A stretch of DNA of 64,000 bases, taken from positions 31,774 to 95,773 of the forward strand of contig JBMOPW010000019.1 in the NCBI GenBank assembly GCA_049322915.1. The letters run 5' to 3'. The notes below the pieces were generated by a model. That model ran no database searches, was not told where the DNA came from, and worked only from the letters and a program-made list of their open reading frames with translations. Within the stretch, counting starts at the first letter, position 1. The number at the start of each line of letters is the position of its first letter. A program made the position numbers and the translations under genes. This DNA comes from Candidatus Zhuqueibacterota bacterium. GTDB lineage: Bacteria; Zhuqueibacterota; Zhuqueibacteria; Thermofontimicrobiales; Thermofontimicrobiaceae. Positions 46,137 to 60,944 of this stretch are shown here, one piece after another.

Positions 46137-46324
46137 GGCTGTTACTTCATCCTCGGGTTATTTCCACGTAAAATTAGCGGTCAGCCTGCAGCGAGCCGTT
46201 TTCTATTCAAAAAAGGTATCTACTCAGGTGACCATGCTGAAGCATGGCGCTGGTTTAAAATTGTACCAACACCACGATTTATCGTGGTGTTCAAAAATCA
46301 ACGAGCCAGTTTCGCGGTAAGAAT

Positions 46325-46400
46325 ACATGTCTGAATAGCGACGAAAATTTTCTTTAACCCGGAACCATGAACCTTTAAACCTGGAACCTGAGCAGCTACC
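46325..46400. repeat. Dispersed intergenic repeat, copy 2
   Basis: Similar to 26928-26988. Confidence 0.55.
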
Positions 46401-46485
46401 AAAAAAGTATTAAAATTTTCTATCAGAAACGACTACAGAGGTTCTATGTTCTGTCATAACCGGTGCGCCGCGAGCTACCGCTACC

Positions 46486-49225: not shown

Positions 49226-50800
49226 TCATTTCACTTCCAGTAACATTAACGCGATATCATCCTGCAACACTGAGTTTTTCGAAAAGCTCAGACAATGCTT
49301 CACCAGCGCGTTCAGCAGACGTTCGCCCTTCAATTGATTATTTTCCGTCAGAAAATTCTTGAGCCGCTCCATGCCAAAAAGCGCATTCCGGTCATCGGCC
49401 ATTTCAATGATGCCGTCGGTGTGAAGAAAGAGCTTGTGCTTCTTGCTGAATTCCATCTCGTAATTTTCATATTCAAAATCTTCCATGAAGCCAATGGCCA
49501 CGCCAAGTTTGCGCAGCTCAGTCACATGGCCATGCGGATCGATCATCAAAGGCAGCGCGTGATGGCCGGCCGATGCGTACGAAAGTCGGTATCGATTCAG
49601 GTCGATCACGCCGCACACAATCGTCAGATAAATGCCATTTTCAATGAAGTACTCCTCCTGATTGAAATTTCTATTCAATTGCCGGAGTATGTCCGCCGGG
49701 GTCAATGAATCGACATCAAATTTTTTCAGGATATTATTTATCTGTTCCCGAATGAACACCGTCACCAGCGCCGATGTGACGCCATGGCCGGACACGTCCG
49801 CAATATAGAAACCGATGCGGGAGTCGTCAATTTTGAAAATATTGATAAAATCGCCGCCCACCGTATTCGATGCCTGATAGAAGAAATTCACATCCAGGCT
49901 TTGGCACGCAGTCAACTCTCTGGGCAAAAGCGCTTCCTGAATTTTTCGGGCTGAATGCAGGTCCGCCTGAATCTGGTCACTTTTCTTGCGCAACTCGCTG
50001 TTCAGCGCTTCCAGTTTTATATTCGTCTCGCGGACTTTTTTCTGCAAATAAAAATTACGCGCATGCGCCTGCACGCGAGCCAGCAGCTCCGCCCTGTCAA
50101 ACGGCTTGGTGATATAATCGGTCGCGCCCGCGTCCAGCGCCTCGATCAGTTTGGATTTATCATCGACCGCAGTCAGGAACACAATGGGGATGTGATTGTA
50201 ACGCGGGTTCTTTCGGATGGCCTCCACGACCTGAAACCCGTTTTTGTGGGGCATCATGTAATCGAGTATCAGCAGTTCCGGGGCTTTTTGAGTGAATTGA
50301 GCCAGGGCCTGGTTTCCGTCCATGGCCAGACGAAGATTGGTGTAACCGTTCTTCTTCAGCAAATATTCCAGCATCCGTCGTGTGACCGCATCGTCTTCGG
50401 CAATCAAAATGTCAATTTCTTTTCCTGTTTCACGGGCCTCCTCGCGTTCTCGTTCGAACTCGCGGAGGCATTGCACCACTTCACCAGGCTGAACCGGCTT
50501 CTGCAAGATCATCGCGTCGCCATTCGCGCCCAATTTTTGCCTCACCCGGGCCGGATCGAGTTCCGTGAGAAAAACGATGGGGATGCCCCGGGTCTCGCTG
50601 CTTTGCCTCAGCGTCAAATAGAAATCGAACGCCGATGGGACCGATGCATTATCCTCCAGCACGATGAAATCTGGCCGGCGTTCCCGGACGGATTCGACCT
50701 TCGGCGCAGACATGACGCTGAAACCCTCTGCAGTCAGGAAGGAAGCAATACGCTCGCACAACGTATTGGTCGTATTGATCATCAGTACAAATTTGCCCAT
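49226..50800 (-). CDS. RsbU-like PP2C/SpoIIE phosphatase with two receiver domains
   Basis: Degenerate REC plus canonical REC (AEDD, LDYMMP, ITKP); GGDF, ADVSGHG, HTDG, DDI. Confidence 0.9.
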   Translation of the reverse strand: MGKFVLMINTTNTLCERIASFLTAEGFSVMSAPKVESVRERRPDFIVLEDNASVPSAFDFYLTLRQSSETRGIPIVFLTELDPARVRQKLGANGDAMILQKPVQPGEVVQCLREFEREREEARETGKEIDILIAEDDAVTRRMLEYLLKKNGYTNLRLAMDGNQALAQFTQKAPELLILDYMMPHKNGFQVVEAIRKNPRYNHIPIVFLTAVDDKSKLIEALDAGATDYITKPFDRAELLARVQAHARNFYLQKKVRETNIKLEALNSELRKKSDQIQADLHSARKIQEALLPRELTACQSLDVNFFYQASNTVGGDFINIFKIDDSRIGFYIADVSGHGVTSALVTVFIREQINNILKKFDVDSLTPADILRQLNRNFNQEEYFIENGIYLTIVCGVIDLNRYRLSYASAGHHALPLMIDPHGHVTELRKLGVAIGFMEDFEYENYEMEFSKKHKLFLHTDGIIEMADDRNALFGMERLKNFLTENNQLKGERLLNALVKHCLSFSKNSVLQDDIALMLLEVK

Positions 50801-51234: not shown

Positions 51235-51306
51235 ATTTATCGTGAGGCTCACCCGCCGATGTGAAGCGCCAGCGAAATAGCGGTCATGTGGAGCTATTTG
51301 TTAAAT
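51235..51306 (-). repeat. attC site (terminal; R'' ATTTAAC, degenerate R' GATAAAT)
   Basis: Minus strand atttaac-aaatagctccac..ccgcta..tcggcgggtgagc; R'' matches cassette start ATTAAAT at 55459-55453. Confidence 0.7.
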
Positions 51307-53671
51307 GATCTGATTTATCTTGAATAATATTTAGCGGAATCCGAACACACTTCATATTCTTGTCATGAATGGTTATTCCATATTCTAAATCTCTTGAAAG
51401 GATTATCATTATGGGTTTGTCTATTCGGTAATTCTCCTGGGCAGCAATCTCCGTTAGGCTCTTGATGTCAAGTCCGCTGGGTTCGTTGCCGCCTGAGGGG
51501 TGATAATGCCATTCTCCCAGATAAAGCCCTTTTTCACCGAGTTCGTTGAAAGCATCTAAAAGCTGTTTTTGACAGTATCCCTCATCCTTCTCGAATCGGA
51601 CTTTCGTTCTTATAGCATTCTGACCGGGCTTGCTCGCTTTAACAATTACATATTCCTCACCAGCATTTCTGTATCCGACCAAGACGCCACCTGTTTCAAC
51701 ATCCCCAGAGTCGGCCGACTCCTGCTTCATGAAATCGAGTACTTCCCTAAGAACATGAATTTTCTTGTCATCAAGCTTTTGACATACGAAACATTTGGGG
51801 TGAGGTGGGATTCTATCGGCCCGAATCAAACCATATGTTGAATTCCCAAGCTGCAGCCCATCCAGTGCCTCAGAACCCCATGTCCAATGATTGCTTTCGG
51901 TATTCTTGCCTTGCAGGAAATCAATAATGATACGAGAAAAGACGCCGGCGATAATCTTCATGTCAGCTGCGCTCGCAGGCCTCACTGGGTTGTTGCATTC
52001 ATTTGTTATGGTAGGGAGATTCTCATCTTCTGGGATATTCAGAAATATAGGATTCTTGTCTTTGAGATACAGTCCCAGACAAGCCTTGCACGCGTCTGTT
52101 TGGGGAATGGCCCTAAATATACGAGCAACTTTGCCACCACGCAAAGCCCTGCAGTAGAATACTGTCCTTCCTTGATCTATAGCCTGTTCATTGAGGTAGG
52201 CTTCTACATTATCGTCCGCTATCGTGGAAATTCCAATTGTGTTTTCTGGAAAATAGCTGTCAATTCTAGCGCTGAGGATATTTGAAAAGTTATATTCAAT
52301 ATTTACAAATGGATTGTGAATTAAGAGTTGTTCGACCATCCCAAATGCTTTAGGAATGCTCGTCCAGTTAATGCCCAAGACGTGTCTGATCGCATTGTGC
52401 GCCCTCATATCCTCTTTGTCCACCAACAGGATTCTTCCCACTCCAGCCTTGGTCAGTGCATCAGCTGTCTCAGAACCAAGCGCTCCGCAACCGATAATAG
52501 ATATCGCCTTATCCTTTAAGATGCCTCTCTTAGCCCTCCCAGTATTCCGCATATGGAAATAATCGTCAGTGAAATACTCCTGATACACTGCTTGTATAGA
52601 GTAATCAAGCAGCCTCAGTTTCAACTCTTCGTTACCGGCTCCAACAATGGGTAAACGACTTCCTTTGGCGAGCCTGAACATCTGCCAGTCTTTTTTTCTT
52701 GACCTTCCGGGGAATCTGATGCCAATGTAAATGCATTCATTCAGTCCGCTTAGTTCAGATTTAAGGCTATGCGCCAGTTCATCAATTCCGTTGCCCGCAT
52801 CACCATTGCCAATGTATCGTACAAATTCACTCACGTTCGAAAATGGTTCTGGCTCAATAGGAATTTCCCACCAGTATCCTTCAATTAATTGACCCTCACG
52901 CAATTTGGTCGCCTTTTCCTGACTATTGTTATCCAGGAGTAGGCGTTTGATGTCGGGAATGGGAGAGAACAAAATCAGCTGCTCATTTTTATAGGTCTTG
53001 GGAGGAAGCGAGACGCCTGCTCGGGTTTCACCATATAACATCACACCCGTGTAGGTTTTCTTGCCAATGTTGTCGGGAAGGAAGTTGGCTGGAATGAAGC
53101 TGGACAGTCCTGCGTAGAATTTTCCTTTTACTATTTCTTCATCAAAGAATAAATCAGGGAGAAGATACTGGATCTCATACGTTCTGCTTGGAAAGTGATG
53201 AAATAGCTCAACTTCACTGCTGTCTTTTGGGATTTTTCCGGACAGCCATATCCTTAATCTCTTAATAATATCTTCAATAGGGTATATTTCCGGGTTTTCG
53301 CCATGTAAGTCCCCCATTTCAACAAAGCAGACACTTCCGTCTTCATTCTGATGACGCCTATTGAAGAATCTGATATTGTTTTTTACCCGCTGCTTTATCT
53401 CTTCCGGTGCAATCTCTGAGTATTCTATTGCCGTTTCCTCGCTTATTTCATTATCCAGAATGTAGATTGTCGGGGGTATGTAAGGCGTAGCTTCAGGATA
53501 TACGATTAAGATAGGGAAGTATTCTGTTTTGCTTTTGTGAACTATAATATGGCCGCCGGATATGAGGGTTTGGCCTATGACCTGGTACTGCTCCCTGTAA
53601 ATGGAATTGGTGGAAAGCTCCCTTGTCTCCCTATACAACCAGGCAGTATTTCGGGCAAACCACTCCATCAA
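51284..53671 (-). CDS. Fused E2 (UBC-like) - E1 (ThiF) - JAB protein, Cap2/Cap3-like
   Basis: YPEATPYIPP and HQNEDGSVC (E2); IIGCGALGS..LVDKE..HNAIRH, CKAC, NEC, CFVC (E1); ETGG, GEWHYHP..PSGLD (JAB). Confidence 0.9.
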   Translation of the reverse strand: MMEWFARNTAWLYRETRELSTNSIYREQYQVIGQTLISGGHIIVHKSKTEYFPILIVYPEATPYIPPTIYILDNEISEETAIEYSEIAPEEIKQRVKNNIRFFNRRHQNEDGSVCFVEMGDLHGENPEIYPIEDIIKRLRIWLSGKIPKDSSEVELFHHFPSRTYEIQYLLPDLFFDEEIVKGKFYAGLSSFIPANFLPDNIGKKTYTGVMLYGETRAGVSLPPKTYKNEQLILFSPIPDIKRLLLDNNSQEKATKLREGQLIEGYWWEIPIEPEPFSNVSEFVRYIGNGDAGNGIDELAHSLKSELSGLNECIYIGIRFPGRSRKKDWQMFRLAKGSRLPIVGAGNEELKLRLLDYSIQAVYQEYFTDDYFHMRNTGRAKRGILKDKAISIIGCGALGSETADALTKAGVGRILLVDKEDMRAHNAIRHVLGINWTSIPKAFGMVEQLLIHNPFVNIEYNFSNILSARIDSYFPENTIGISTIADDNVEAYLNEQAIDQGRTVFYCRALRGGKVARIFRAIPQTDACKACLGLYLKDKNPIFLNIPEDENLPTITNECNNPVRPASAADMKIIAGVFSRIIIDFLQGKNTESNHWTWGSEALDGLQLGNSTYGLIRADRIPPHPKCFVCQKLDDKKIHVLREVLDFMKQESADSGDVETGGVLVGYRNAGEEYVIVKASKPGQNAIRTKVRFEKDEGYCQKQLLDAFNELGEKGLYLGEWHYHPSGGNEPSGLDIKSLTEIAAQENYRIDKPIMIILSRDLEYGITIHDKNMKCVRIPLNIIQDKSDHLTNSST

Positions 53672-54732
53672 GCACCCATGGGCTTCTTGTCAATTTTGCT
53701 TACTGGGGGTGGAAATACTATTCTTTTACCGCCTCCGCCCTTGCCACCGTCCTTTTTCCCGTATTCCTTGACCAAGTCATCATCAGGATAAAGGTCTATC
53801 ACTCCATCAGCATTTATATCAACAATTATGCATTCTCTTTTCTCACCTAAATGGAAAACATTATCGTCGCCCACCTCATCCTTATATAAATCCATGGCTT
53901 CCTTATGGGGATGATCGTGCTTGCTTTCTTCGTCTTTCGGAGCGCTGACTACGACATACGTTGGCTTAATGTTATTTAAGTGTTCTTTGTAAGGGTCTGC
54001 ATCTGTATCGGCATCTTTCCAGAAGAAGGATCTTGAACCATGGTGCGCAGCACTCAGGACCGTAGAAGGAAGCCTGTCATTATGGTAATCGGTGATATGT
54101 TCTTTCCATGCACTATAATCCGCATCTCCAGTGATAAGTATCTGTTTCTCCTCTTTTCCATACCTGAATCGAATGACCCCACATTGTTCATGAATCCTTG
54201 CATATCTCTCCTCTGGCTTTTCATCTTCTATTTCGTCAGATACATAGTCCGCGGGAGCCAATACGTTGTAATTTATGTCGCCCAGCACTATTTCTTCTTC
54301 ATCCAATTTGTTCTTTTCCCTGCTGCCTCGAAGGCGAAAGACGTTTTCGTTTCCCAGTTTTTTGATTACAAACTCCAGATCCTTATAGGTTTCCTTGTGC
54401 TCGCCGCCAGGCTTGTGCCCTGAATGCCATAATTGGTCAATGCCAATCTTTTCATAGATTTCCCTAACCTTTCCAAGATGGTCTTTATGGGGATGAGTGT
54501 TGATATAGACATCTAGGCCCCTTTCCTGCCCGTCAAAAAGTTCCTCAAGGAGCTTGATAATATCTATGCCACCAGCTTCTTCATCATAATTTGAATCTAT
54601 CAACACATACTTATAGCCGTCACTCCCAGGGACTGCAAGCAGCGTGGAATCACCTTGCCCGACGTAAAGGAATATTGTTCGGAAGATATTGGGCTCGGCT
54701 GGAATAATTACGTTTTTTGCTGTGTTCGACAT
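53668..54732 (-). CDS. ComEC/Rec2-like metallo-beta-lactamase-fold hydrolase with flexible tail ending PMGA
   Basis: VGQGD, THPHKDH, TGDA, HHGS, HDHP; ATGA overlap with E2-E1-JAB. Confidence 0.88.
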   Translation of the reverse strand: MSNTAKNVIIPAEPNIFRTIFLYVGQGDSTLLAVPGSDGYKYVLIDSNYDEEAGGIDIIKLLEELFDGQERGLDVYINTHPHKDHLGKVREIYEKIGIDQLWHSGHKPGGEHKETYKDLEFVIKKLGNENVFRLRGSREKNKLDEEEIVLGDINYNVLAPADYVSDEIEDEKPEERYARIHEQCGVIRFRYGKEEKQILITGDADYSAWKEHITDYHNDRLPSTVLSAAHHGSRSFFWKDADTDADPYKEHLNNIKPTYVVVSAPKDEESKHDHPHKEAMDLYKDEVGDDNVFHLGEKRECIIVDINADGVIDLYPDDDLVKEYGKKDGGKGGGGKRIVFPPPVSKIDKKPMGA

Positions 54733-54747
54733 CCATTGTCTCCTTTA

Positions 54748-55413
54748 TTATCCCTGTTCTGAAAATCGTACCAAAAACAGGTCATAGATTGATCTGGCGA
54801 AATCCTCGCCCCTTTTCTTTGTGCGAAAATAGCTTACTACTACACCAATAATGGTGAAAATCAGAACGCTAAGGATTACGGACTTCCTTTGGGGTTCAGT
54901 GAATAAAAAAACACCCAGGTCAAATAGAAAGAGAAAAGTGAAGGTTGTTAGAAGGCATCTGAATAGTCCATAATGTGCATTGAATATTTGAGGCCGATCG
55001 CTGAGATTTTCCTTATCCACAGCGTTGTAACAAAGATAAAAGATCTCCTGGTTCTTTTTGAGTTGTTTCTCTTTGGACTGGTCATCGTCAGCCTTGACGG
55101 AGTATTTGGCTCTGACTATCTCCTTGATTTTGCTCTTGTATTCGTTGCTGAACTTATTGTCATCTGGGAGAAGCCACTTTGCGGACGGGAATCCTCTCCA
55201 AACTTTCAGCAGTATCTTTTCTGTCAATCCCTGGCTAATTCCCTGCAAAATTAAACCGGTTACATAACCCAAAGCCACCAGGACAGAGGTCTCGGCCAGT
55301 CCGCCTGTAAATGGAATGTCTGCCGAATTGGAAATGAAGGAAACTCCCCAGAGGAAGAGAATCCCTGGTATTACCACTGCAATGAAGTCGTATAGAGAAA
55401 ACCTTGATACCAT
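54748..55413 (-). CDS. 4-TM membrane protein, first gene of the MBL/E2-E1-JAB operon
   Basis: YDFIAVVIPG N-terminus; two TM pairs around a soluble loop; 15 bp from the MBL start. Confidence 0.75.
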   Translation of the reverse strand: MVSRFSLYDFIAVVIPGILFLWGVSFISNSADIPFTGGLAETSVLVALGYVTGLILQGISQGLTEKILLKVWRGFPSAKWLLPDDNKFSNEYKSKIKEIVRAKYSVKADDDQSKEKQLKKNQEIFYLCYNAVDKENLSDRPQIFNAHYGLFRCLLTTFTFLFLFDLGVFLFTEPQRKSVILSVLIFTIIGVVVSYFRTKKRGEDFARSIYDLFLVRFSEQG

Positions 55414-55452: not shown

Positions 55453-55550
55453 ATTTAATCGCGGCGCTGACCCGCGAGCACGCTGGCTGGGAGTCCCGCT
55501 TGCGGGACGGACAGACAGCGCGCGCAGTCGGGTCAAGTGCCATGTTCCGC
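55453..55550 (-). repeat. attC site (R'' GCGGAAC, non-canonical R' ATTAAAT)
   Basis: Long imperfect palindrome ttgacccg...cgggtcag. Confidence 0.75.
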
Positions 55551-55616
55551 CGCGCGTCAGCGCGGGGAGCATGGCACTGACGAAGTCAGCGCCGCGATTC
55601 CGCGCGACGAAGTCGC

Positions 55617-55676
55617 ACGGAACGTCAAGTTCAGTGGCGGAGCGTCAGCGGAGTCCGCTAGAGCGCCTGGTTGGGC
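55617..55676 (-). repeat. attC site (R'' GCCCAAC, R' GTTCCGT)
   Basis: 60-bp canonical-looking attC directly after hicA. Confidence 0.88.
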
Positions 55677-55682
55677 GATCGA

Positions 55683-55910
55683 TCACGACTCGAACTCGCT
55701 CCTGGGTATACCAGACTGGCGGATGATGGATTGAAGTGTGCCAATCCGCAGCTCGTCGTGGTTTGGAACGGGTACGGTAACCGTTGTATCAGGCAGATGC
55801 TTCTGCATCACGACATGGCTACCGCGCTGCCGCACTTCATGGAACCCATGGAGCACAAGGATGGCGCAAACTTGCTTCCCGGAGAGGACGCGGAGCTTAC
55901 CCAACGGCAA
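55683..55910 (-). CDS. hicA: HicA-family toxin
   Basis: RQRGSH, VPVPNH, GTLQSIIRQSG. Confidence 0.9.
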   Translation of the reverse strand: MPLGKLRVLSGKQVCAILVLHGFHEVRQRGSHVVMQKHLPDTTVTVPVPNHDELRIGTLQSIIRQSGIPRSEFES

Positions 55911-56118
55911 CCTCCACTCGGGTCACATACACTTCTTCATGCAAGCGCGTCTGGATCTCCTCGGGCGAGGCTGTTTCGAAAAATAGCTCTAGTGCTTCCC
56001 GAAGATTTTCGCGGGCTTCTTCGATGGTATCGCCCTGACTGGCGATATCGAGTTCTGGGCAAAGCGACACATACCCGCACCCTTCCCGCTCAATAAACGC
56101 TGTAAGTTGCTTCTGCAT
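55897..56118 (-). CDS. hicB: HicB-like antitoxin (short form)
   Basis: CPELDIASQGDTIEEARENLREALELF; start at MQKQ. Confidence 0.88.
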   Translation of the reverse strand: MQKQLTAFIEREGCGYVSLCPELDIASQGDTIEEARENLREALELFFETASPEEIQTRLHEEVYVTRVEVAVG

Positions 56119-56274
56119 AATATCTACTCCAATTTTCTGAATCGTCATTCCTCGGTTTCGCGAACCAAGGCTTGTGCTACGCGCACGAACCAGTTATCTC
56201 TTGTAGAGCCAACAGTTGCGATAAGTTTATAGGTCAGTTTAGTGGTCATTCGAGCCTCCTGTGCCGACTGTACG

Positions 56275-57122
56275 GTCGGGTAGGTCGGGGGCATTGCTGC
56301 CCCTTTCCCCCCTAAGAACCGTACGTGACAGTTTCCCGTCATACGGCTCAAGCCTCTGAAAAGTATCCCTTGTGGGGATACCCACGAATTAATAATAATT
56401 TGTTTCACGTTACATTCTGATATTCAGAATAGCCATAAGGTATGTAGAGTGCACCATCCCGACTCGTCGGGACGTCATTTGCTTTCTCTACTTTCATCTG
56501 ATTACACCAGTATTCACGAGACCAGAGACCTGCTGAACGTCTGCCTCTTTACAGAGTCCCGATTCATCGGGATATCCCGACCATTACAGCCGGACATTCG
56601 CTTCTTTCAGCATCCTATTCCAATCCACCATCAGCTTGCCTTACGGTTAGCCTGCCCATCATAACAGGGCGATGGAATTGGGTTTCCACGTTCCGTATAA
56701 TTGACCCCAATGAGTAACTTAGGTGGATTCTCTACGCCGGCGATACGACAGTTCCGTATAGGTAGTTAGAAGACCTATAACCTGATCGCCTGTGTAAACA
56801 CAAGGAAACACAGCTTATACCTATTTCTGGTTTTAGCCAGAATTTAATCTCCGTAAGTATGATGCACCATTGACGACGCTTACAGACTTTCAATTGATTT
56901 CACCATATTACTCAGACCTTAGCCCTTAACCGGAGGAGATTTCCGGATGGGTTTTCATCTCACGATGTCCGACCGTTTCGGTGCATTGTCCGGTGAGCTT
57001 CACACCCCGTCATCAGCGCAACGGTAGCATGTCACCGTAAGGTACTGATAGGAACATATCAGGTTTGTCTAAAGAACAATATCTCTTTAACAAACATTCA
57101 ATTATACAGCCTCGTGTCGCAC
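56275..57122 (-). ncRNA. ORF-less group II intron (848 nt) inserted in attC R'
   Basis: 5' GTGCG at 57122; 34-nt domain V GAGCCGTATGACGGGAAACTGTCACGTACGGTTC (56349-56316); domain VI with bulged A and 3' AC at 56275; exons rejoin to GTTAGG|C. Confidence 0.88.
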
Positions 57123-57254
57123 CCTAACGACAAGTGTAACCTGCCAAAGGGCTTGATTGCACAGCACTTATGAACTTAACATAACTTTGATGAATGCACT
57201 ACTTTTCTGGATTTCATCGTCCGCCCTTTGGTCAGGTTGACGCAAAGGTTAGCT
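57123..57254 (-). repeat. attC site (R'' AGCTAAC, R' GTTAGG)
   Basis: caacctgaccaaagggc / gccctttggcaggtt arms. Confidence 0.85.
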
Positions 57255-57272
57255 GAAAGTTATTAATATGTG

Positions 57273-57848
57273 TTACCTTATATCTATAAATTCTGTTTTC
57301 ATTAATTCTTTTATTCGTATATCAATATGATGATTTTTAATATATTCAAATGTAGATATAGGAACTAAATGATTCCATAATTCATCGTTAAGAATTTTAC
57401 ATCTTATCTCATGACCTGAATAAGGTTTACTAATTAATTCTCTTCTCCAAAGGATTTCTACTTTTAAATTTAACGACTTTAAAAGATACAATTTTTTCTC
57501 ACCCCATTCATCATAAATCGTAATAAAATAGGTGGCTTCTTTAGGTGTGTAATAATGCAATAATTCTGGAATATTAATAGGAAAGGGAACTATACAAAAA
57601 TCAGATGAACTATAACCACTATCAAAAAGAGCCTTTTGTAATATGTTATATCGTTCGAAATATGTTAATGGATTTGAAGATGGTGACGATCGATGTAAAG
57701 CTGTTTTATCTTCTTTTGTATGAGTCGGATCTGGATTTGTAATACCAATATACATATAATTAACTCTTTTCATTCCTGCTAATAGGTATTCCATATGTCC
57801 AAGATGTAATGGTTGAAATCTCCCATGAATAACACCTATTTTAATCAT
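57273..57848 (-). CDS. HxGH nucleotidyltransferase (NMNAT/cytidylyltransferase-like)
   Basis: HGRFQPLHLGH, IGITNPD, NPLTYFER, SGHEIR. Confidence 0.85.
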   Translation of the reverse strand: MIKIGVIHGRFQPLHLGHMEYLLAGMKRVNYMYIGITNPDPTHTKEDKTALHRSSPSSNPLTYFERYNILQKALFDSGYSSSDFCIVPFPINIPELLHYYTPKEATYFITIYDEWGEKKLYLLKSLNLKVEILWRRELISKPYSGHEIRCKILNDELWNHLVPISTFEYIKNHHIDIRIKELMKTEFIDIR

Positions 57849-57850
57849 TA

Positions 57851-58654
57851 TTATGCCTTTTTAAAAAAATCAACTATTTCATCAATGCTTAGAGCTTCAT
57901 TCCATAAATGCTTAAAGCTTTCAATTAATTTTTCATAAAGATTTTCTGAATCAATTTTTTTTACTATAAAGCTTGGACGATGCTGGGGAGTAAATTTATG
58001 TAAGATTGGTTCAACTTTAATCATACCGCTATTTGTATCTTTATCAATAAAAAGTATAGAAGCCGTTGGAATAGTAGGGTAACACTTTATTTCAATATTC
58101 GCCTTAACCGAGGGATCATTAATCTCATCTAACCAATCCTTTTGGTGAAGGATATTGTTTTTTAATAAATCAGGCAATCCTTTAAAAGTGTGGACTTTTC
58201 CGACTTCTCCTACCCAAGGTAACAATTTACCATCTTTATTTATTGGACTCATGATTAAAAGTTTAATTTTTATTCCTTTTTGGGCTTTTTGTCGCAGTAA
58301 TGGTAAATGAAGATGTGTAACAGCACCAAGCTGTAGCCCCATAATTATTAATTCTTGTTTAGTTTCGTTTAGTATTTTATCAATTGAAGGAACATCCGAT
58401 CGATCAGTAAAAAAATCTGAAATTCCTTTAATTCTACTTGAAATTTGTAATGATAATAAGGATCTGTTATTTTTGATTTGATTATAAATAAGTAACGATA
58501 GGACTGCTAAAGTAACAGAAATACTAATTTGCTGTTTAATATTATCCAAAATACCAAGAATAGCCACTACTAATGCAATAATAATTAGCAGGTAATTCTC
58601 AATATTCTTACCTTCTTTTAAATCTTGTAAAATGTTTGACAAGCTTTTAAACAT
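57851..58654 (-). CDS. 2-TM protein with DUF5919/PLD-like domain
   Basis: Two N-terminal TMs; IKLLIMSP, IEIKCY...FID, F..LWNEA. Confidence 0.65.
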   Translation of the reverse strand: MFKSLSNILQDLKEGKNIENYLLIIIALVVAILGILDNIKQQISISVTLAVLSLLIYNQIKNNRSLLSLQISSRIKGISDFFTDRSDVPSIDKILNETKQELIIMGLQLGAVTHLHLPLLRQKAQKGIKIKLLIMSPINKDGKLLPWVGEVGKVHTFKGLPDLLKNNILHQKDWLDEINDPSVKANIEIKCYPTIPTASILFIDKDTNSGMIKVEPILHKFTPQHRPSFIVKKIDSENLYEKLIESFKHLWNEALSIDEIVDFFKKA

Positions 58655-58683
58655 TAATTACTCCTATATAATTAATCTAAAGC

Positions 58684-58742
58684 AGCTAACGCCAGGGTTC
58701 AGCCGCGCGGTTTTCTGCGTCGGCTGGAACTCTTTGTTGGGG
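58684..58742 (-). repeat. attC site (R'' CCCCAAC, R' GTTAGCT)
   Basis: 59-bp canonical attC: ttccagccgacgc..gcgcggctgaa. Confidence 0.9.
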
Positions 58743-59451
58743 TACCTTCGCTCTTCATGGTGATTTGTGTTTTTAGTTTAGATATCTGAGCAGAGACTCG
58801 TTGAATCCTATCCATAGGAATCATTAAAAAAAGAAAAAGCAAAACGAAAATCAGCCCTACACTTATTCCACCTTCAAGAACATTTGTTTTGGAAAGCGAA
58901 TAAACACTAATCACGGATAAGGCAATATAGATCGCTTTTGAAATAACCTCTTTCCTAAAGTCCTTTTTTCGGAGACACGCGTTTTCTGCTTCAAGTCGAT
59001 CAACCTCTGTTTCAAGATATTCAGTACGTCCAATTAGTTTGTCGACAACTGGCGTGGTATCCGCAATCTGTAAATTGATTGTTTTTTCAACCAAGATGTA
59101 TTTTTTTATTTTGTTAGATAGTTCTTTAATATCAACGGGTTTTGTAATAAAATCACATGCGCCATTTCTAATACAACGAATAGCGGTGTCACGGTCTTTA
59201 AAATACCCTGAGAACATGACGACCCTTGTCTCAACGCCACGTTTCTTAAACTCTTCTAAAACTTCGAATCCATCAAGCACTGGAAGCTGAATGTCTAATA
59301 GCACCAGATCGGGGTTTACCTTTGCTGCAATTTCGACAGCTTCTCGACCATCAATTGCAGTTGACACATCATAACCAGTTTTCTCAAAGTATCGTTTAAG
59401 TAGTGTGGAAATGTCAGGTTCATCATCTACGATAAGTATTTTGTCTGTCAT
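58699..59451 (-). CDS. Receiver domain + coiled coil + 2-TM protein
   Basis: IVDDE, LLDIQLP, FSG, ITKP; start at MTDK; stop lies within attC. Confidence 0.8.
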   Translation of the reverse strand: MTDKILIVDDEPDISTLLKRYFEKTGYDVSTAIDGREAVEIAAKVNPDLVLLDIQLPVLDGFEVLEEFKKRGVETRVVMFSGYFKDRDTAIRCIRNGACDFITKPVDIKELSNKIKKYILVEKTINLQIADTTPVVDKLIGRTEYLETEVDRLEAENACLRKKDFRKEVISKAIYIALSVISVYSLSKTNVLEGGISVGLIFVLLFLFLMIPMDRIQRVSAQISKLKTQITMKSEGTPTKSSSRRRKPRG

Positions 59452-59460
59452 TTTTTTAAA

Positions 59461-59588
59461 CCCCAACATTAGCATGAGGAGCACGAGGGAAAAGAGTATA
59501 TACTTTTCCTATTGTGCCACTCACTAAAATTGTCAAGAATTATCCTTTTTTCCCAAACCCTCGTGTCTGCTCAATGCTGTCGTTGCAC
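59461..59588 (-). repeat. attC site (R'' GTGCAAC, R' GTTGGGG)
   Basis: gcattgagcagacacgaggg / ccctcgtgctcctcatgc arms. Confidence 0.85.
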
Positions 59589-59638
59589 ATACTGTTGCGC
59601 CTATGGTACGTTACTCTCCATTTTCACTGGCGAGCACC

Positions 59639-60865
59639 TCACGGTGTGTTGTTATAAACTGACCATATATGCTGTTTAATGGGCTTGAAATCTTCTACGC
59701 TTCTCATGTGCCCTATCTGGCATTTGGGGCATTTTATGAATAAATCGTCCTTGAGTTTCGAAACTTCTCTATCGGCACTGTCTCTATGCTCATTCTCCCG
59801 TTTTATCCCCAGTGACTGCCTTATTTGCTCTATCTTTTCCTCACGTATTGCCTGAGCCAGAAAACCGCCATAACGAATTTTACGAAACCGCTTTGGTAGA
59901 ATATGTAATAAAAACCGACGAATGAATTCTTCGGCAGATAAATTACAACTTTCTTTGCTGCCACCCTTTTTATAGTTCTTCACATAAAAATGAATGTTAC
60001 CACCACTAATATCAATCAGTCGATTATTGGATAATGCAACTTTATGCGTGTAACAACCAACATATTTGACCACTTGCTTTGGCCCGCCAAATGGTGATTT
60101 GGCATAGCTCACCCAATTATCGCTTGCAATGTCATTGAGAAAATATTCAAACATGACGACATTTTGTAAGCTTTCGTTTCCAGTTGGGAATGTTATTTTC
60201 CCTTTAAGATATGCTTTACGCAATAGCTTTATAAAACGTGCCTTTATCACTTTTCCCATGGCAGTGCCTGGAAATAAAAACTTATCGTGATAGGGTAACG
60301 CTTTCCAATCTCCATCCTGGGTAATGCCACCCCCTGGTATAATGAAATGCCAATGTATATGATAGCAAAGCCCTTTTCCCCACGTGTGTAAAACTCCAAT
60401 GAATCCTAATTGTCCCCCCAGGAATTTAGGATCCTTGCCAAATTTGAGTAATGCATAGGCCGCTGCATGGTAAAATAAATTATAGATTAATCGTTTATTA
60501 TAGAGCGCTAATGTATTGAGTCGATGGGGGAGCGTAAAAACAACATGATAATATGGAACGGGTAACAATTCTTTTAATCTGGCAGCAACCCATTGCCGTC
60601 TCACAATGCCCTGGCATTTTGGACAATGTCGGTTATGGCAGGAATTGTAAGCTGGTTGTTGGTAATGGCAAACATCACAGACTTCTAAATGTGCGCCACA
60701 ATCAGCAGTACGACATACTTGAATATCATAAAGAATTTTCTTCTGCCAGCGAGAGAGGCGATGCTTTGTCTTGTATAAGGGCAGATACTTCCGCAGAATA
60801 TCTGCAAGTTCATATTTGGGACGATTGCCGACTGTTTTAGATGAATGTGCTCGACATGACGACAT
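59639..60865 (-). mobile_element. IS91-like (HUH Y2) transposase
   Basis: Zn finger CRT..C..C, NSCHNRHCPKC, HVVFTLP, LHTWG..HIHWH, YVGCY, RFLLHILP. Confidence 0.9.
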
Positions 60866-60944
60866 AATGGCTATACTATCATATAGTAAATTGAATAACT
60901 CATTATATCTTATTTTAATTTATAGACTTGTAGCTTGCTACTAT

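Follow-up and report, generated by a model that had tools for sequence, protein, structure and literature searches.

A divergent 6A-MBL-type cassette with a Csx27-family membrane protein in a Candidatus Zhuqueibacterota genome

We analyzed a 64,000-nt stretch of the Candidatus Zhuqueibacterota bacterium assembly GCA_049322915.1 (contig JBMOPW010000019.1, positions 31,774 to 95,773 of the forward strand), here called the window and numbered from its first letter. Three co-directional minus-strand open reading frames (ORFs) at 51284..55413 encode a four-transmembrane (4-TM) protein, a metallo-beta-lactamase-fold (MBL) hydrolase and a fused E2-E1-JAB protein, called the ligase below. Judged from their sequences, the three genes are a real, intact and divergent copy of the 6A-MBL anti-phage class with a Csx27-family partner. 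The explanation that we favor, and hold with moderate confidence, is that this horizontally acquired 6A-MBL member is a conjugation module similar to that of type II CBASS (signaling against phages that is based on cyclic oligonucleotides), with the MBL in the place of the cyclase and the 4-TM protein as a co-effector or anchor.

Iyer, Burroughs and Aravind (2006; PMC1779556) listed the pairing of an MBL gene with a fused E2-E1-JAB gene as operon type 6a, and NCBIfam names the parts ‘anti-phage 6A-MBL system’ (NF058523 ‘cap2_3’ and NF058524 ‘MBL-fold protein’). A passage in PMC13276650 describes the anti-phage activity of 6A-MBL as experimentally confirmed and attributes this to van den Berg et al. 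(2024). The system is counted among known jumbo-phage defenses in a passage of a preprint (10.1101/2025.09.30.679545), and a DefenseFinder model, 6A_MBL, is cited in PMC13700489. Another preprint, from 2024, states in one passage that ‘MBL pathways’ conjugate their enzyme to unknown targets via a fused E2-E1 (10.1101/2024.11.21.623953); the mechanism put forward in the original prediction, an annotation made from this DNA alone, is therefore the current published view. The novelty it implied does not hold, as the pair was already type 6a in 2006, has since been named 6A-MBL and was given a conjugation role in the 2024 preprint. What we add are the statistics of the MBL tail, the placing of the membrane partner in the Csx27 family and the observation that the third slot of the operon is swappable. 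The tail statistics and the third-slot swap leave the kind of system unchanged.

The features of the cassette, each with the evidence on which it was called, are:

54748..55413, minus strand: Csx27-family 4-TM membrane protein, 221 aa (PADLOC, NCBIfam, AlphaFold2)
53668..54732, minus strand: ComEC-like MBL hydrolase, 354 aa (Pfam, NCBIfam, metal ligands)
53671..53703, minus strand: C-terminal motif of the MBL, V-S-K-I-D-K-K-P-M-G-A, residues 344-354 (homologue alignment)
51284..53671, minus strand: fused E2-E1-JAB protein, 795 aa from TTG (ORF list, translation)
52577..53671, minus strand: predicted E2/UBC-like core (H107-Q-N...C115) and middle domain, residues 1-365 of the ligase (fold match and motif)
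51773..52576, minus strand: E1 (ThiF/MoeB-type adenylation) domain, residues 366-633 of the ligase (Pfam ThiF, VIA-align)
51284..51763, minus strand: JAB/JAMM metallopeptidase domain, residue 637 of the ligase to its C-terminus, with the stop codon (Pfam, PADLOC, NCBIfam, PDB)

The tight coupling of the three genes described in the original prediction is borne out by their common direction and by the 15-bp gap between the 4-TM and MBL genes, which contains AGGAG. The ‘ATGA’ overlap given there needs correction. The MBL/ligase junction reads ...GGT GCT TGA TGG, and the overlap is 4 nt (TTGA) if the ligase starts at TTG, or 1 nt (TGATG) if it starts at the ATG at 53668, which gives 794 aa and from which the database copy P0124 also starts. 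Promoter and terminator scans yielded no signal relevant to the operon that exceeded shuffled sequences. The absence of a ubiquitin-like protein (Ubl) or CD-NTase gene, also claimed at the outset, agrees with a Pfam scan of ORFs of at least 60 aa from 42.8 to 62.2 kb, which gave neither family.

Ligase, hydrolase and MBL tail

Ligase. The putative catalytic motifs lie at residues 107-115 (HQNEDGSVC), 394-399 (GCGALG), 528-531 (CKAC), 557-559 (NEC), 627-630 (CFVC), 659-662 (ETGG) and 721-735 (WHYHP..S..D), with E659, H722-x-H724, S732 and D735 as the JAB motif residues. In an alignment of 88 homologues with identity down to 35%, H107, C115, G394, G396, G399, C528, C531, C559, C627, C630, E659, H722, H724 and S732 are invariant, so the motifs are more than chance. 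All of the E2, E1, JAB and MBL motifs quoted in the original prediction were found in the translations, with their catalytic residues conserved across homologues.

The E1 and JAB domains are recognized by several profile libraries. Pfam assigns ThiF (1.5e-15, residues 378-592) and Prok-JAB (1.7e-8, residues 656-760), and the PADLOC E1-E2 and JAB models match with E-values down to 2.7e-31 (JAB 1.7e-29). The JAB domain also matches NCBIfam Cap3 (3.2e-16) and the PDB chain 9ild_A, ‘Peptidase’ (4.5e-12). The best NCBIfam family for the whole protein is 6A-MBL_cap2_3 (NF058523), at 135.1 bits against a cut-off of 320; this match spans residues 386-748 only and leaves the E2 and middle region outside.

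An AlphaFold2 model of the ligase built from the 88 homologues has a mean predicted local distance difference test (pLDDT) of 89.0. Its best Foldseek match in the PDB is the Cap2 chain of the Cap2-CdnD02 complex (7to3_A; E 4.1e-22, 673 columns, template-modeling score 0.69 by target length), and VIA-align matches its E1 core, model residues 366-632, to UBA5, MoeB and ThiF with Z of 26-27. Sequence searches of the N-terminal ~350 residues for an E2 domain gave none in Pfam and none in a PDB profile search with an N-terminal alignment; the PADLOC E1-E2 model reaches E 0.006 only. The AlphaFold2 model shows a helix at 9-21, four strands within 25-72, a cysteine-carrying loop and a helix at 132-143. 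This pattern, the whole-chain match to Cap2 and the invariant H107...C115 together suggest that the N-terminal part is E2/UBC-like.

Hydrolase. The MBL matches Pfam Lactamase_B (1.1e-7), NCBIfam ComEC_Rec2 (1.8e-6) and NCBIfam 6A-MBL_enzyme (NF058524; 64.3 bits against a cut-off of 220). The solved chains nearest to it by sequence are 9ic4_A, ‘Competence protein’ (3.5e-5), and 30bt_A, a ComEC. Its HxHxDH site is intact (HPHKDH at 80-85), and an alignment of 86 homologues shows no variation at H80, H82, D84, H85, D203, H230 and H231. We take the protein to be a likely nuclease and also the likely conjugated ‘modifier’.

Class assignment. By the broad definition of class 6a, the window holds both components: an E2-E1-JAB chain, with E1 and JAB recognized by Pfam, the E1 fold, the whole-chain Cap2 match and an E2 indicated by fold and motif, and an adjacent specialized MBL gene, in a pairing that is kept in 17 of 19 related genome loci. 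Both proteins score below the cut-offs of the narrow NCBIfam equivalogs, and the cassette is therefore placed in a divergent clade and not in the equivalog itself. Current NCBIfam cut-offs thus miss a divergent 6A-MBL-type defense cassette, and the value of the present assignment is correct annotation. Relatives carry public names such as ‘ThiF family adenylyltransferase’, ‘competence protein ComEC’ and ‘MBL fold metallo-hydrolase’, and the third gene is labeled ‘hypothetical protein’ in its plasmid copies.

MBL tail. We listed the C-termini of the window MBL and the best 120 of its 539 homologues. Of these 121 sequences, 109 end in the motif DxK[PSA][MFL]G plus up to three variable residues; among the 109, the glycine is followed by no residue in 36, by one in 64, by two in 8 and by three in 1, and the identity of these residues is not fixed. 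D348 and G353 do not vary in an alignment of 86 selected homologues, in which K350, P351 and M352 reach 90% conservation or more. The motif is retained in copies from Bacteroidota, Verrucomicrobiota and Bacillota whose overall identity is 48-53%, including two plasmid copies with the tails ...LDRKPMGGQ (Paenibacillus) and ...LDDKPMG (Hymenobacter).

The tail also follows the type of operon. It is present in 16 of the 17 genome loci in which E2-E1-JAB comes after the MBL, the seventeenth (L019) having broken genes. It is missing from both Patescibacteria loci that have only a stand-alone E2 and no E1, and from all five neighboring second MBLs of the PDC-M48B type. The attachment glycine thus seems readable from the family, as DxKPMG plus 0-3 variable residues in a tail that tracks the presence of E1.

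A conserved glycine with a short variable stub is the pattern expected of a processed ubiquitin-like precursor. Because this pattern holds across most of the listed MBL homologues, the reactive residue should be Gly353, with Ala354 removed, and Gly353 exposed in this way is the likely attachment point. The original prediction named the MBL as the modifier, ligated through its terminal alanine or through a glycine exposed by JAB. On these computational grounds the exposed glycine is the alternative that fits, since the conserved residue is the penultimate Gly353 and not the terminal alanine. The same prediction would have been undermined by a terminal G/GA that varied among MBL homologues; the glycine is conserved.

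The Csx27-family protein and its linkage

Membrane protein. The 4-TM protein matches the PADLOC Csx27 model PDLC01605 (E 2.4e-16) over residues 3-197 of 221, as well as the PADLOC sister model tm_4. It scores 33.7 bits against the NCBIfam equivalog CAS_Csx27 (NF040557), below the cut-off of 65, and 2.4e-3, a weak match, against PDC-M48A. An exhaustive HMMER search found 404 cluster representatives at E<=1e-3. When 105 full-length relatives were aligned, the Csx27 model hit 100 of them and PDC-M48A hit 35. By these profile matches the protein is a member of the broad Csx27 family, and not the uncharacterized addition for which it had been taken. It is the single Csx27-like copy in the genome.

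The four hydrophobic helices first noted were recovered by a hydropathy scan of close homologues and in the AlphaFold2 model (pLDDT 94.5; helices 7-28, 39-72, 90-104, 114-134, 140-171 and 174-217). Two N-terminal and two C-terminal TM helices flank a cytoplasmic helical domain at about residues 73-139. Pfam assigns no family to the protein. A Foldseek search of the PDB with the model gave nothing at E<=0.001 (best 0.21, MotA), and a wide VIA-align search gave only helical hairpins and coiled coils with Z up to 9.0, a common range for helical models. An ESM Atlas look-up returned only ‘hypothetical protein’ clusters without Pfam families.

The original prediction offered the 4-TM protein as acceptor, membrane anchor or effector. 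In the 105 relatives we found no conserved acceptor lysine: the best column is 62% lysine and holds Arg4 in the window protein, and K93 lies in a column with 58%. With no lysine conserved above 62%, a fixed acceptor site finds no support. A role as effector or anchor is the better fit, given that sister loci carry phospholipase-type genes in place of the 4-TM gene (below). A complex prediction for the MBL and the 4-TM protein, made without controls (score 0.02, mark 0.32), weighs neither for nor against binding.

Genome loci. In the 17 loci with an MBL-ligase pair, the third slot holds a Csx27-type 4-TM gene in 11, upstream of the pair in 2 and immediately downstream of the ligase gene in 9. 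Eight of the nine downstream proteins align with the window family by hhalign (97.9% probability, E 4.2e-13, 142 columns), and the ninth, in L004, matches PADLOC Csx27 at E 1.4e-5. Elsewhere the slot holds a PDC-M48A 2-TM protein (L002) whose N-terminal module is shared with the window 4-TM family (93.8%), or a patatin-like phospholipase (L006; Pfam 2.4e-16) beside a 78% identical MBL. L007 has an LRAT-like protein there (6.3e-7) that carries a hydrophobic segment at its C-terminus, and L008 and L011 have a 153-aa TM protein that is unrelated. No third gene is seen in L010, where the contig ends 540 bp past the ligase gene.

Metagenome loci. Metagenome loci were collected with a single 4-TM protein as query. 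The MBL gene directly follows the 4-TM gene in 26 of the 29 loci, and the ligase gene is also present in 18. The three loci without an MBL are at a contig end (L052), on a short remainder (L064) or based on a fragmentary match (L066), and a further six contigs break off within the MBL gene. The MBL match of L053 ends at residue 295; the contig runs on for 208 bp, in which no ligase was seen. In L062 the MBL is only 22% identical. These loci show the cassette moving as a unit. Absence of linkage in other genomes would have counted against the original prediction; the 4-TM gene is linked in both the genome and the metagenome loci. The gene is thus linked yet swappable, and a Csx27-family slot shared with phospholipase-type genes yields a hypothesis, open to testing, on what Csx27-like proteins do.

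The related loci also yielded several side observations. In 5 of the 19 loci the 6A-MBL-type operon has a second MBL beside it, of the PDC-M48B type (E 1e-42 to 1e-139), and in L008 and L011 this second MBL comes after a small TM protein:

Second PDC-M48B-type MBLs (PADLOC): L006:3069-3932; L008:11006-12085; L011:11007-12086; L013:11154-12029; L018:5289-6401

The two Patescibacteria loci (L017:6415-8750 and L018:6415-8828) represent a reduced variant with split parts and have a Csx27-like 4-TM gene, then an MBL with a different tail, then a stand-alone E2 (PADLOC E2 1.3e-28 and 1.6e-21). Neither E1 nor JAB occurs within these loci, and restriction-modification genes flank them. Two loci are decayed or interrupted: in L019:7001-10446 (Niabella defluvii) the MBL and the ligase each match as two pieces in different frames, and in L004:7957-10759 the ligase is in three pieces with gaps, the first ORF stopping at 561 aa.

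Genomic setting. The three cassette genes have a GC content of 0.43-0.46, against 0.50-0.56 on the upstream side. Synteny with a same-genus genome (G124) ends near 50695, and the cassette is absent at this break. When 167 genomes of the phylum were searched for an MBL relative at E<=1e-20, this genome alone had one. None of the 167 reaches the NF058524 cut-off, so that the phylum offers no canonical 6A-MBL tail for comparison. Taken together, the cassette is best explained as a horizontally acquired, sporadic low-GC island.

Other elements lie in the neighboring DNA. Directly upstream of the cassette is a HicA toxin gene (55683-55910, minus strand; Pfam 4.8e-19), preceded by an overlapping ORF (55897-56148, minus strand) with weak HicB/UPF0150-like matches (8e-4). 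Between hicA and the 4-TM gene, a GC-rich element of ~168 bp (~55456-55623), similar to a miniature inverted-repeat transposable element or a repetitive extragenic palindrome, has perfect 15-nt inverted ends at 55457-55471 and 55585-55599; elsewhere the genome holds at least three more copies that are near full length (92-98% identity), together with several partial copies. A group II intron RNA occupies 56275-57063 (minus strand), with Rfam matches to Intron_gpII domains V/VI at 56275-56351 (67.8 bits) and to group-II-D1D4-7 at 56922-57063 (80.2 bits). The intron looks ORF-less or truncated, having no long ORF between these two matches, and DNA ~80% identical to it lies at a contig end (C8) of G124.

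The block at 57000-60900, with a GC content of 0.30-0.40, is probably a separate acquired segment. It contains ORFs that resemble a cytidylyltransferase and, weakly, DUF5919, together with a response regulator and an IS91-family (Y2_Tnp) transposase. On the other side of the cassette, between AsmA-like and UDP-glucose pyrophosphorylase genes, a short dispersed repeat (~46231-46415) matches at least 7 different contigs of the same-genus genome at 79-93% identity.

Proposed mechanism and alternatives

In the mechanism that we favor, the JAB domain would cut Ala354 off the MBL and expose Gly353. The E1 domain would then adenylate Gly353 and take it as a thioester on Cys559, Gly353 would be transferred to Cys115 of the E2 domain, and the MBL would be ligated to a lysine of one or more targets. 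Ligation may prime or localize the ComEC-like metallo-nuclease activity of the MBL, and the JAB domain could also undo the linkage. The Csx27-family protein, filling the swappable third slot, would most likely serve as a membrane co-effector or anchor and not as an acceptor.

Several points weigh against this proposal. The E2 assignment is made from a whole-chain fold match and a motif, while sequence profiles detect no E2. Twelve of the 121 listed MBL sequences do not have the tail. Six of these are short or truncated, one carries 11 residues past the motif and five end differently. The alignment in which Gly353 is invariant was made after tail-less sequences had been excluded. The metagenome loci are close relatives (44-86% identity) and not independent associations. 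PADLOC families match neighbors in 12 of the 19 related loci (restriction-modification, SIR2, CapP and several candidate systems), but this count, over 129 scanned ORFs, is given without a background control, and 3 of the 12 loci are counted solely for their second MBL. Function would be transferred from the tested Pseudomonas-type system by analogy, with both scores far below the equivalog cut-offs.

The alternatives differ mainly in what they ask of the MBL and of the third gene. Under a CBASS-like three-part logic, the MBL would be a conjugation-primed sensor or signal-making enzyme and the 4-TM protein a membrane-permeabilizing killer that causes abortive infection. The gene order and parts do parallel type II CBASS (an enzyme with a reactive tail, Cap2-like and Cap3-like domains and an effector), sister loci carry CBASS-type effectors in the third slot (the patatin of L006, the LRAT-like protein of L007 and the small TM proteins of L002, L008 and L011), and a passage of the 2024 preprint terms the conjugated proteins of these pathways ‘signaling enzymes’. 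However, NCBIfam defines 6A-MBL as two proteins only, and one of the 17 loci (L010, at its contig end) has no third gene. The nearest relative of the MBL is the ComEC nuclease domain and not a known signal synthase, and the 4-TM protein has no recognizable ligand-binding domain by Pfam or among its PDB folds. We consider this alternative unlikely.

The family ties of the proteins also allow a ubiquitin-regulated machine for DNA uptake and degradation, in which a Csx27-family protein forms a DNA channel, the ComEC-like MBL degrades the DNA and the E2-E1-JAB protein regulates both. Such a machine has reportedly been predicted before. The 4-TM protein does belong to the Csx27 family and the nearest characterized relatives of the MBL are ComEC competence proteins. 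The title of Makarova et al. (2019) joins Csx27, natural competence and ubiquitin signaling, and a passage of PMC7642515 reports predicted channels for single-stranded DNA transport or degradation. Replacement of the 4-TM gene by phospholipase-type genes in close sister operons, such as L006, is hard to reconcile with an essential channel, however. The scanned neighbors include no other competence genes, and the locus is a sporadic island. This makes the alternative decidedly unlikely.

A third view, which we regard as very improbable, is that the tail is a docking or autoinhibitory peptide that is never ligated, the E2-E1-JAB protein instead modifying another substrate such as a phage protein or itself. 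The D-x-K-P-M that precedes the glycine is longer than an E1 substrate needs and could be a recognition peptide. Yet a conserved glycine with 0-3 non-conserved residues is the signature of a processed, activated C-terminus, and the scanned ORFs offer no other candidate modifier gene. According to the title of PDB entry 7to3, the nearest solved relative, Cap2, acts on the C-terminus of its operon partner. Cap2 is reported to work in this way.

The favored reading, conjugation of the MBL with the 4-TM protein as co-effector or anchor, can be extended in a bolder direction that has a small but real chance of being right. The third slot would then mark full three-part immune systems, similar to type II CBASS minus the cyclase, which couple the ubiquitin-like ligation of a ComEC-type nuclease to a membrane protein. 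The nuclease might be tethered or passed on at the membrane, where phage DNA comes in; alternatively, the Csx27-like protein might be a pore-forming effector that the MBL switches on. If true, this would be the first functional handle on the Csx27-family proteins found next to Cas13b.

Comparison with known systems

6A-MBL systems and the window share a single-chain E2-E1-JAB protein beside a specialized MBL, the lack of a Ubl gene and a cyclase, and a mobile, sporadic distribution. The window proteins differ in falling below the equivalog cut-offs, and the cassette adds a Csx27-family 4-TM protein as a third gene.

Type II CBASS shares with the window a Cap2-like E2-E1 and a Cap3-like JAB, a partner enzyme with a flexible C-terminal tail ending in Gly/Ala, and a membrane or lipid-acting gene in the operon. 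In contrast to CBASS, the scanned ORFs of the window encode no CD-NTase and no cyclic-nucleotide receptor domain; the only nucleotidyltransferase is the cytidylyltransferase-like ORF (57273-57848), which lies in a different low-GC block. The Cap2-like and Cap3-like parts are present here in fused form, and the proposed conjugated partner is an MBL hydrolase. Two plasmid matches considered as 6A-MBL (H5 and H8) were rejected, since they are type II CBASS with a fused Cap2-Cap3.

Csx27, the accessory protein of type VI-B1 CRISPR systems, resembles the window protein in its four TM helices and in the near full-length PADLOC Csx27 and tm_4 matches. The broad family is associated with ComEC-like and ubiquitin-system genes, according to the title of Makarova, Gao, Zhang and Koonin (2019), which links Csx27, natural competence and ubiquitin signaling through one membrane-protein family; the summary of that work in PMC7642515 speaks of predicted channels. 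The window protein belongs to this broad family but differs from Csx27 proper in scoring below the equivalog cut-off. Neither cas nor CRISPR sequences were seen among the scanned neighbors or in the repeat scan, and cas13b was not sought genome-wide.

PADLOC PDC-M48 also consists of a TM protein (A) and an MBL protein (B), and strong M48A or M48B matches lie beside the sister operons L002, L006, L008, L011, L013 and L018. The window proteins are outside this group: M48B matches the MBL weakly and partially (8.1e-9, residues 38-102) and M48A the 4-TM protein at 2.4e-3, compared with 1e-42 to 1e-139 for true members. Moreover, M48B MBLs have no KPMG tail (0 of 5) and no ligase of their own.

Bil and Bub pathways have E1/E2/JAB-type chemistry in defense-island operons, as the window does, and passages of two preprints describe a JAB that trims a precursor to a C-terminal glycine (10.1101/2023.09.26.559546 and 10.1101/2024.11.21.623953). 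They differ in using a separate beta-grasp Ubl with separate E1 and E2 proteins, whereas in the window the enzyme itself would bear the reactive tail.

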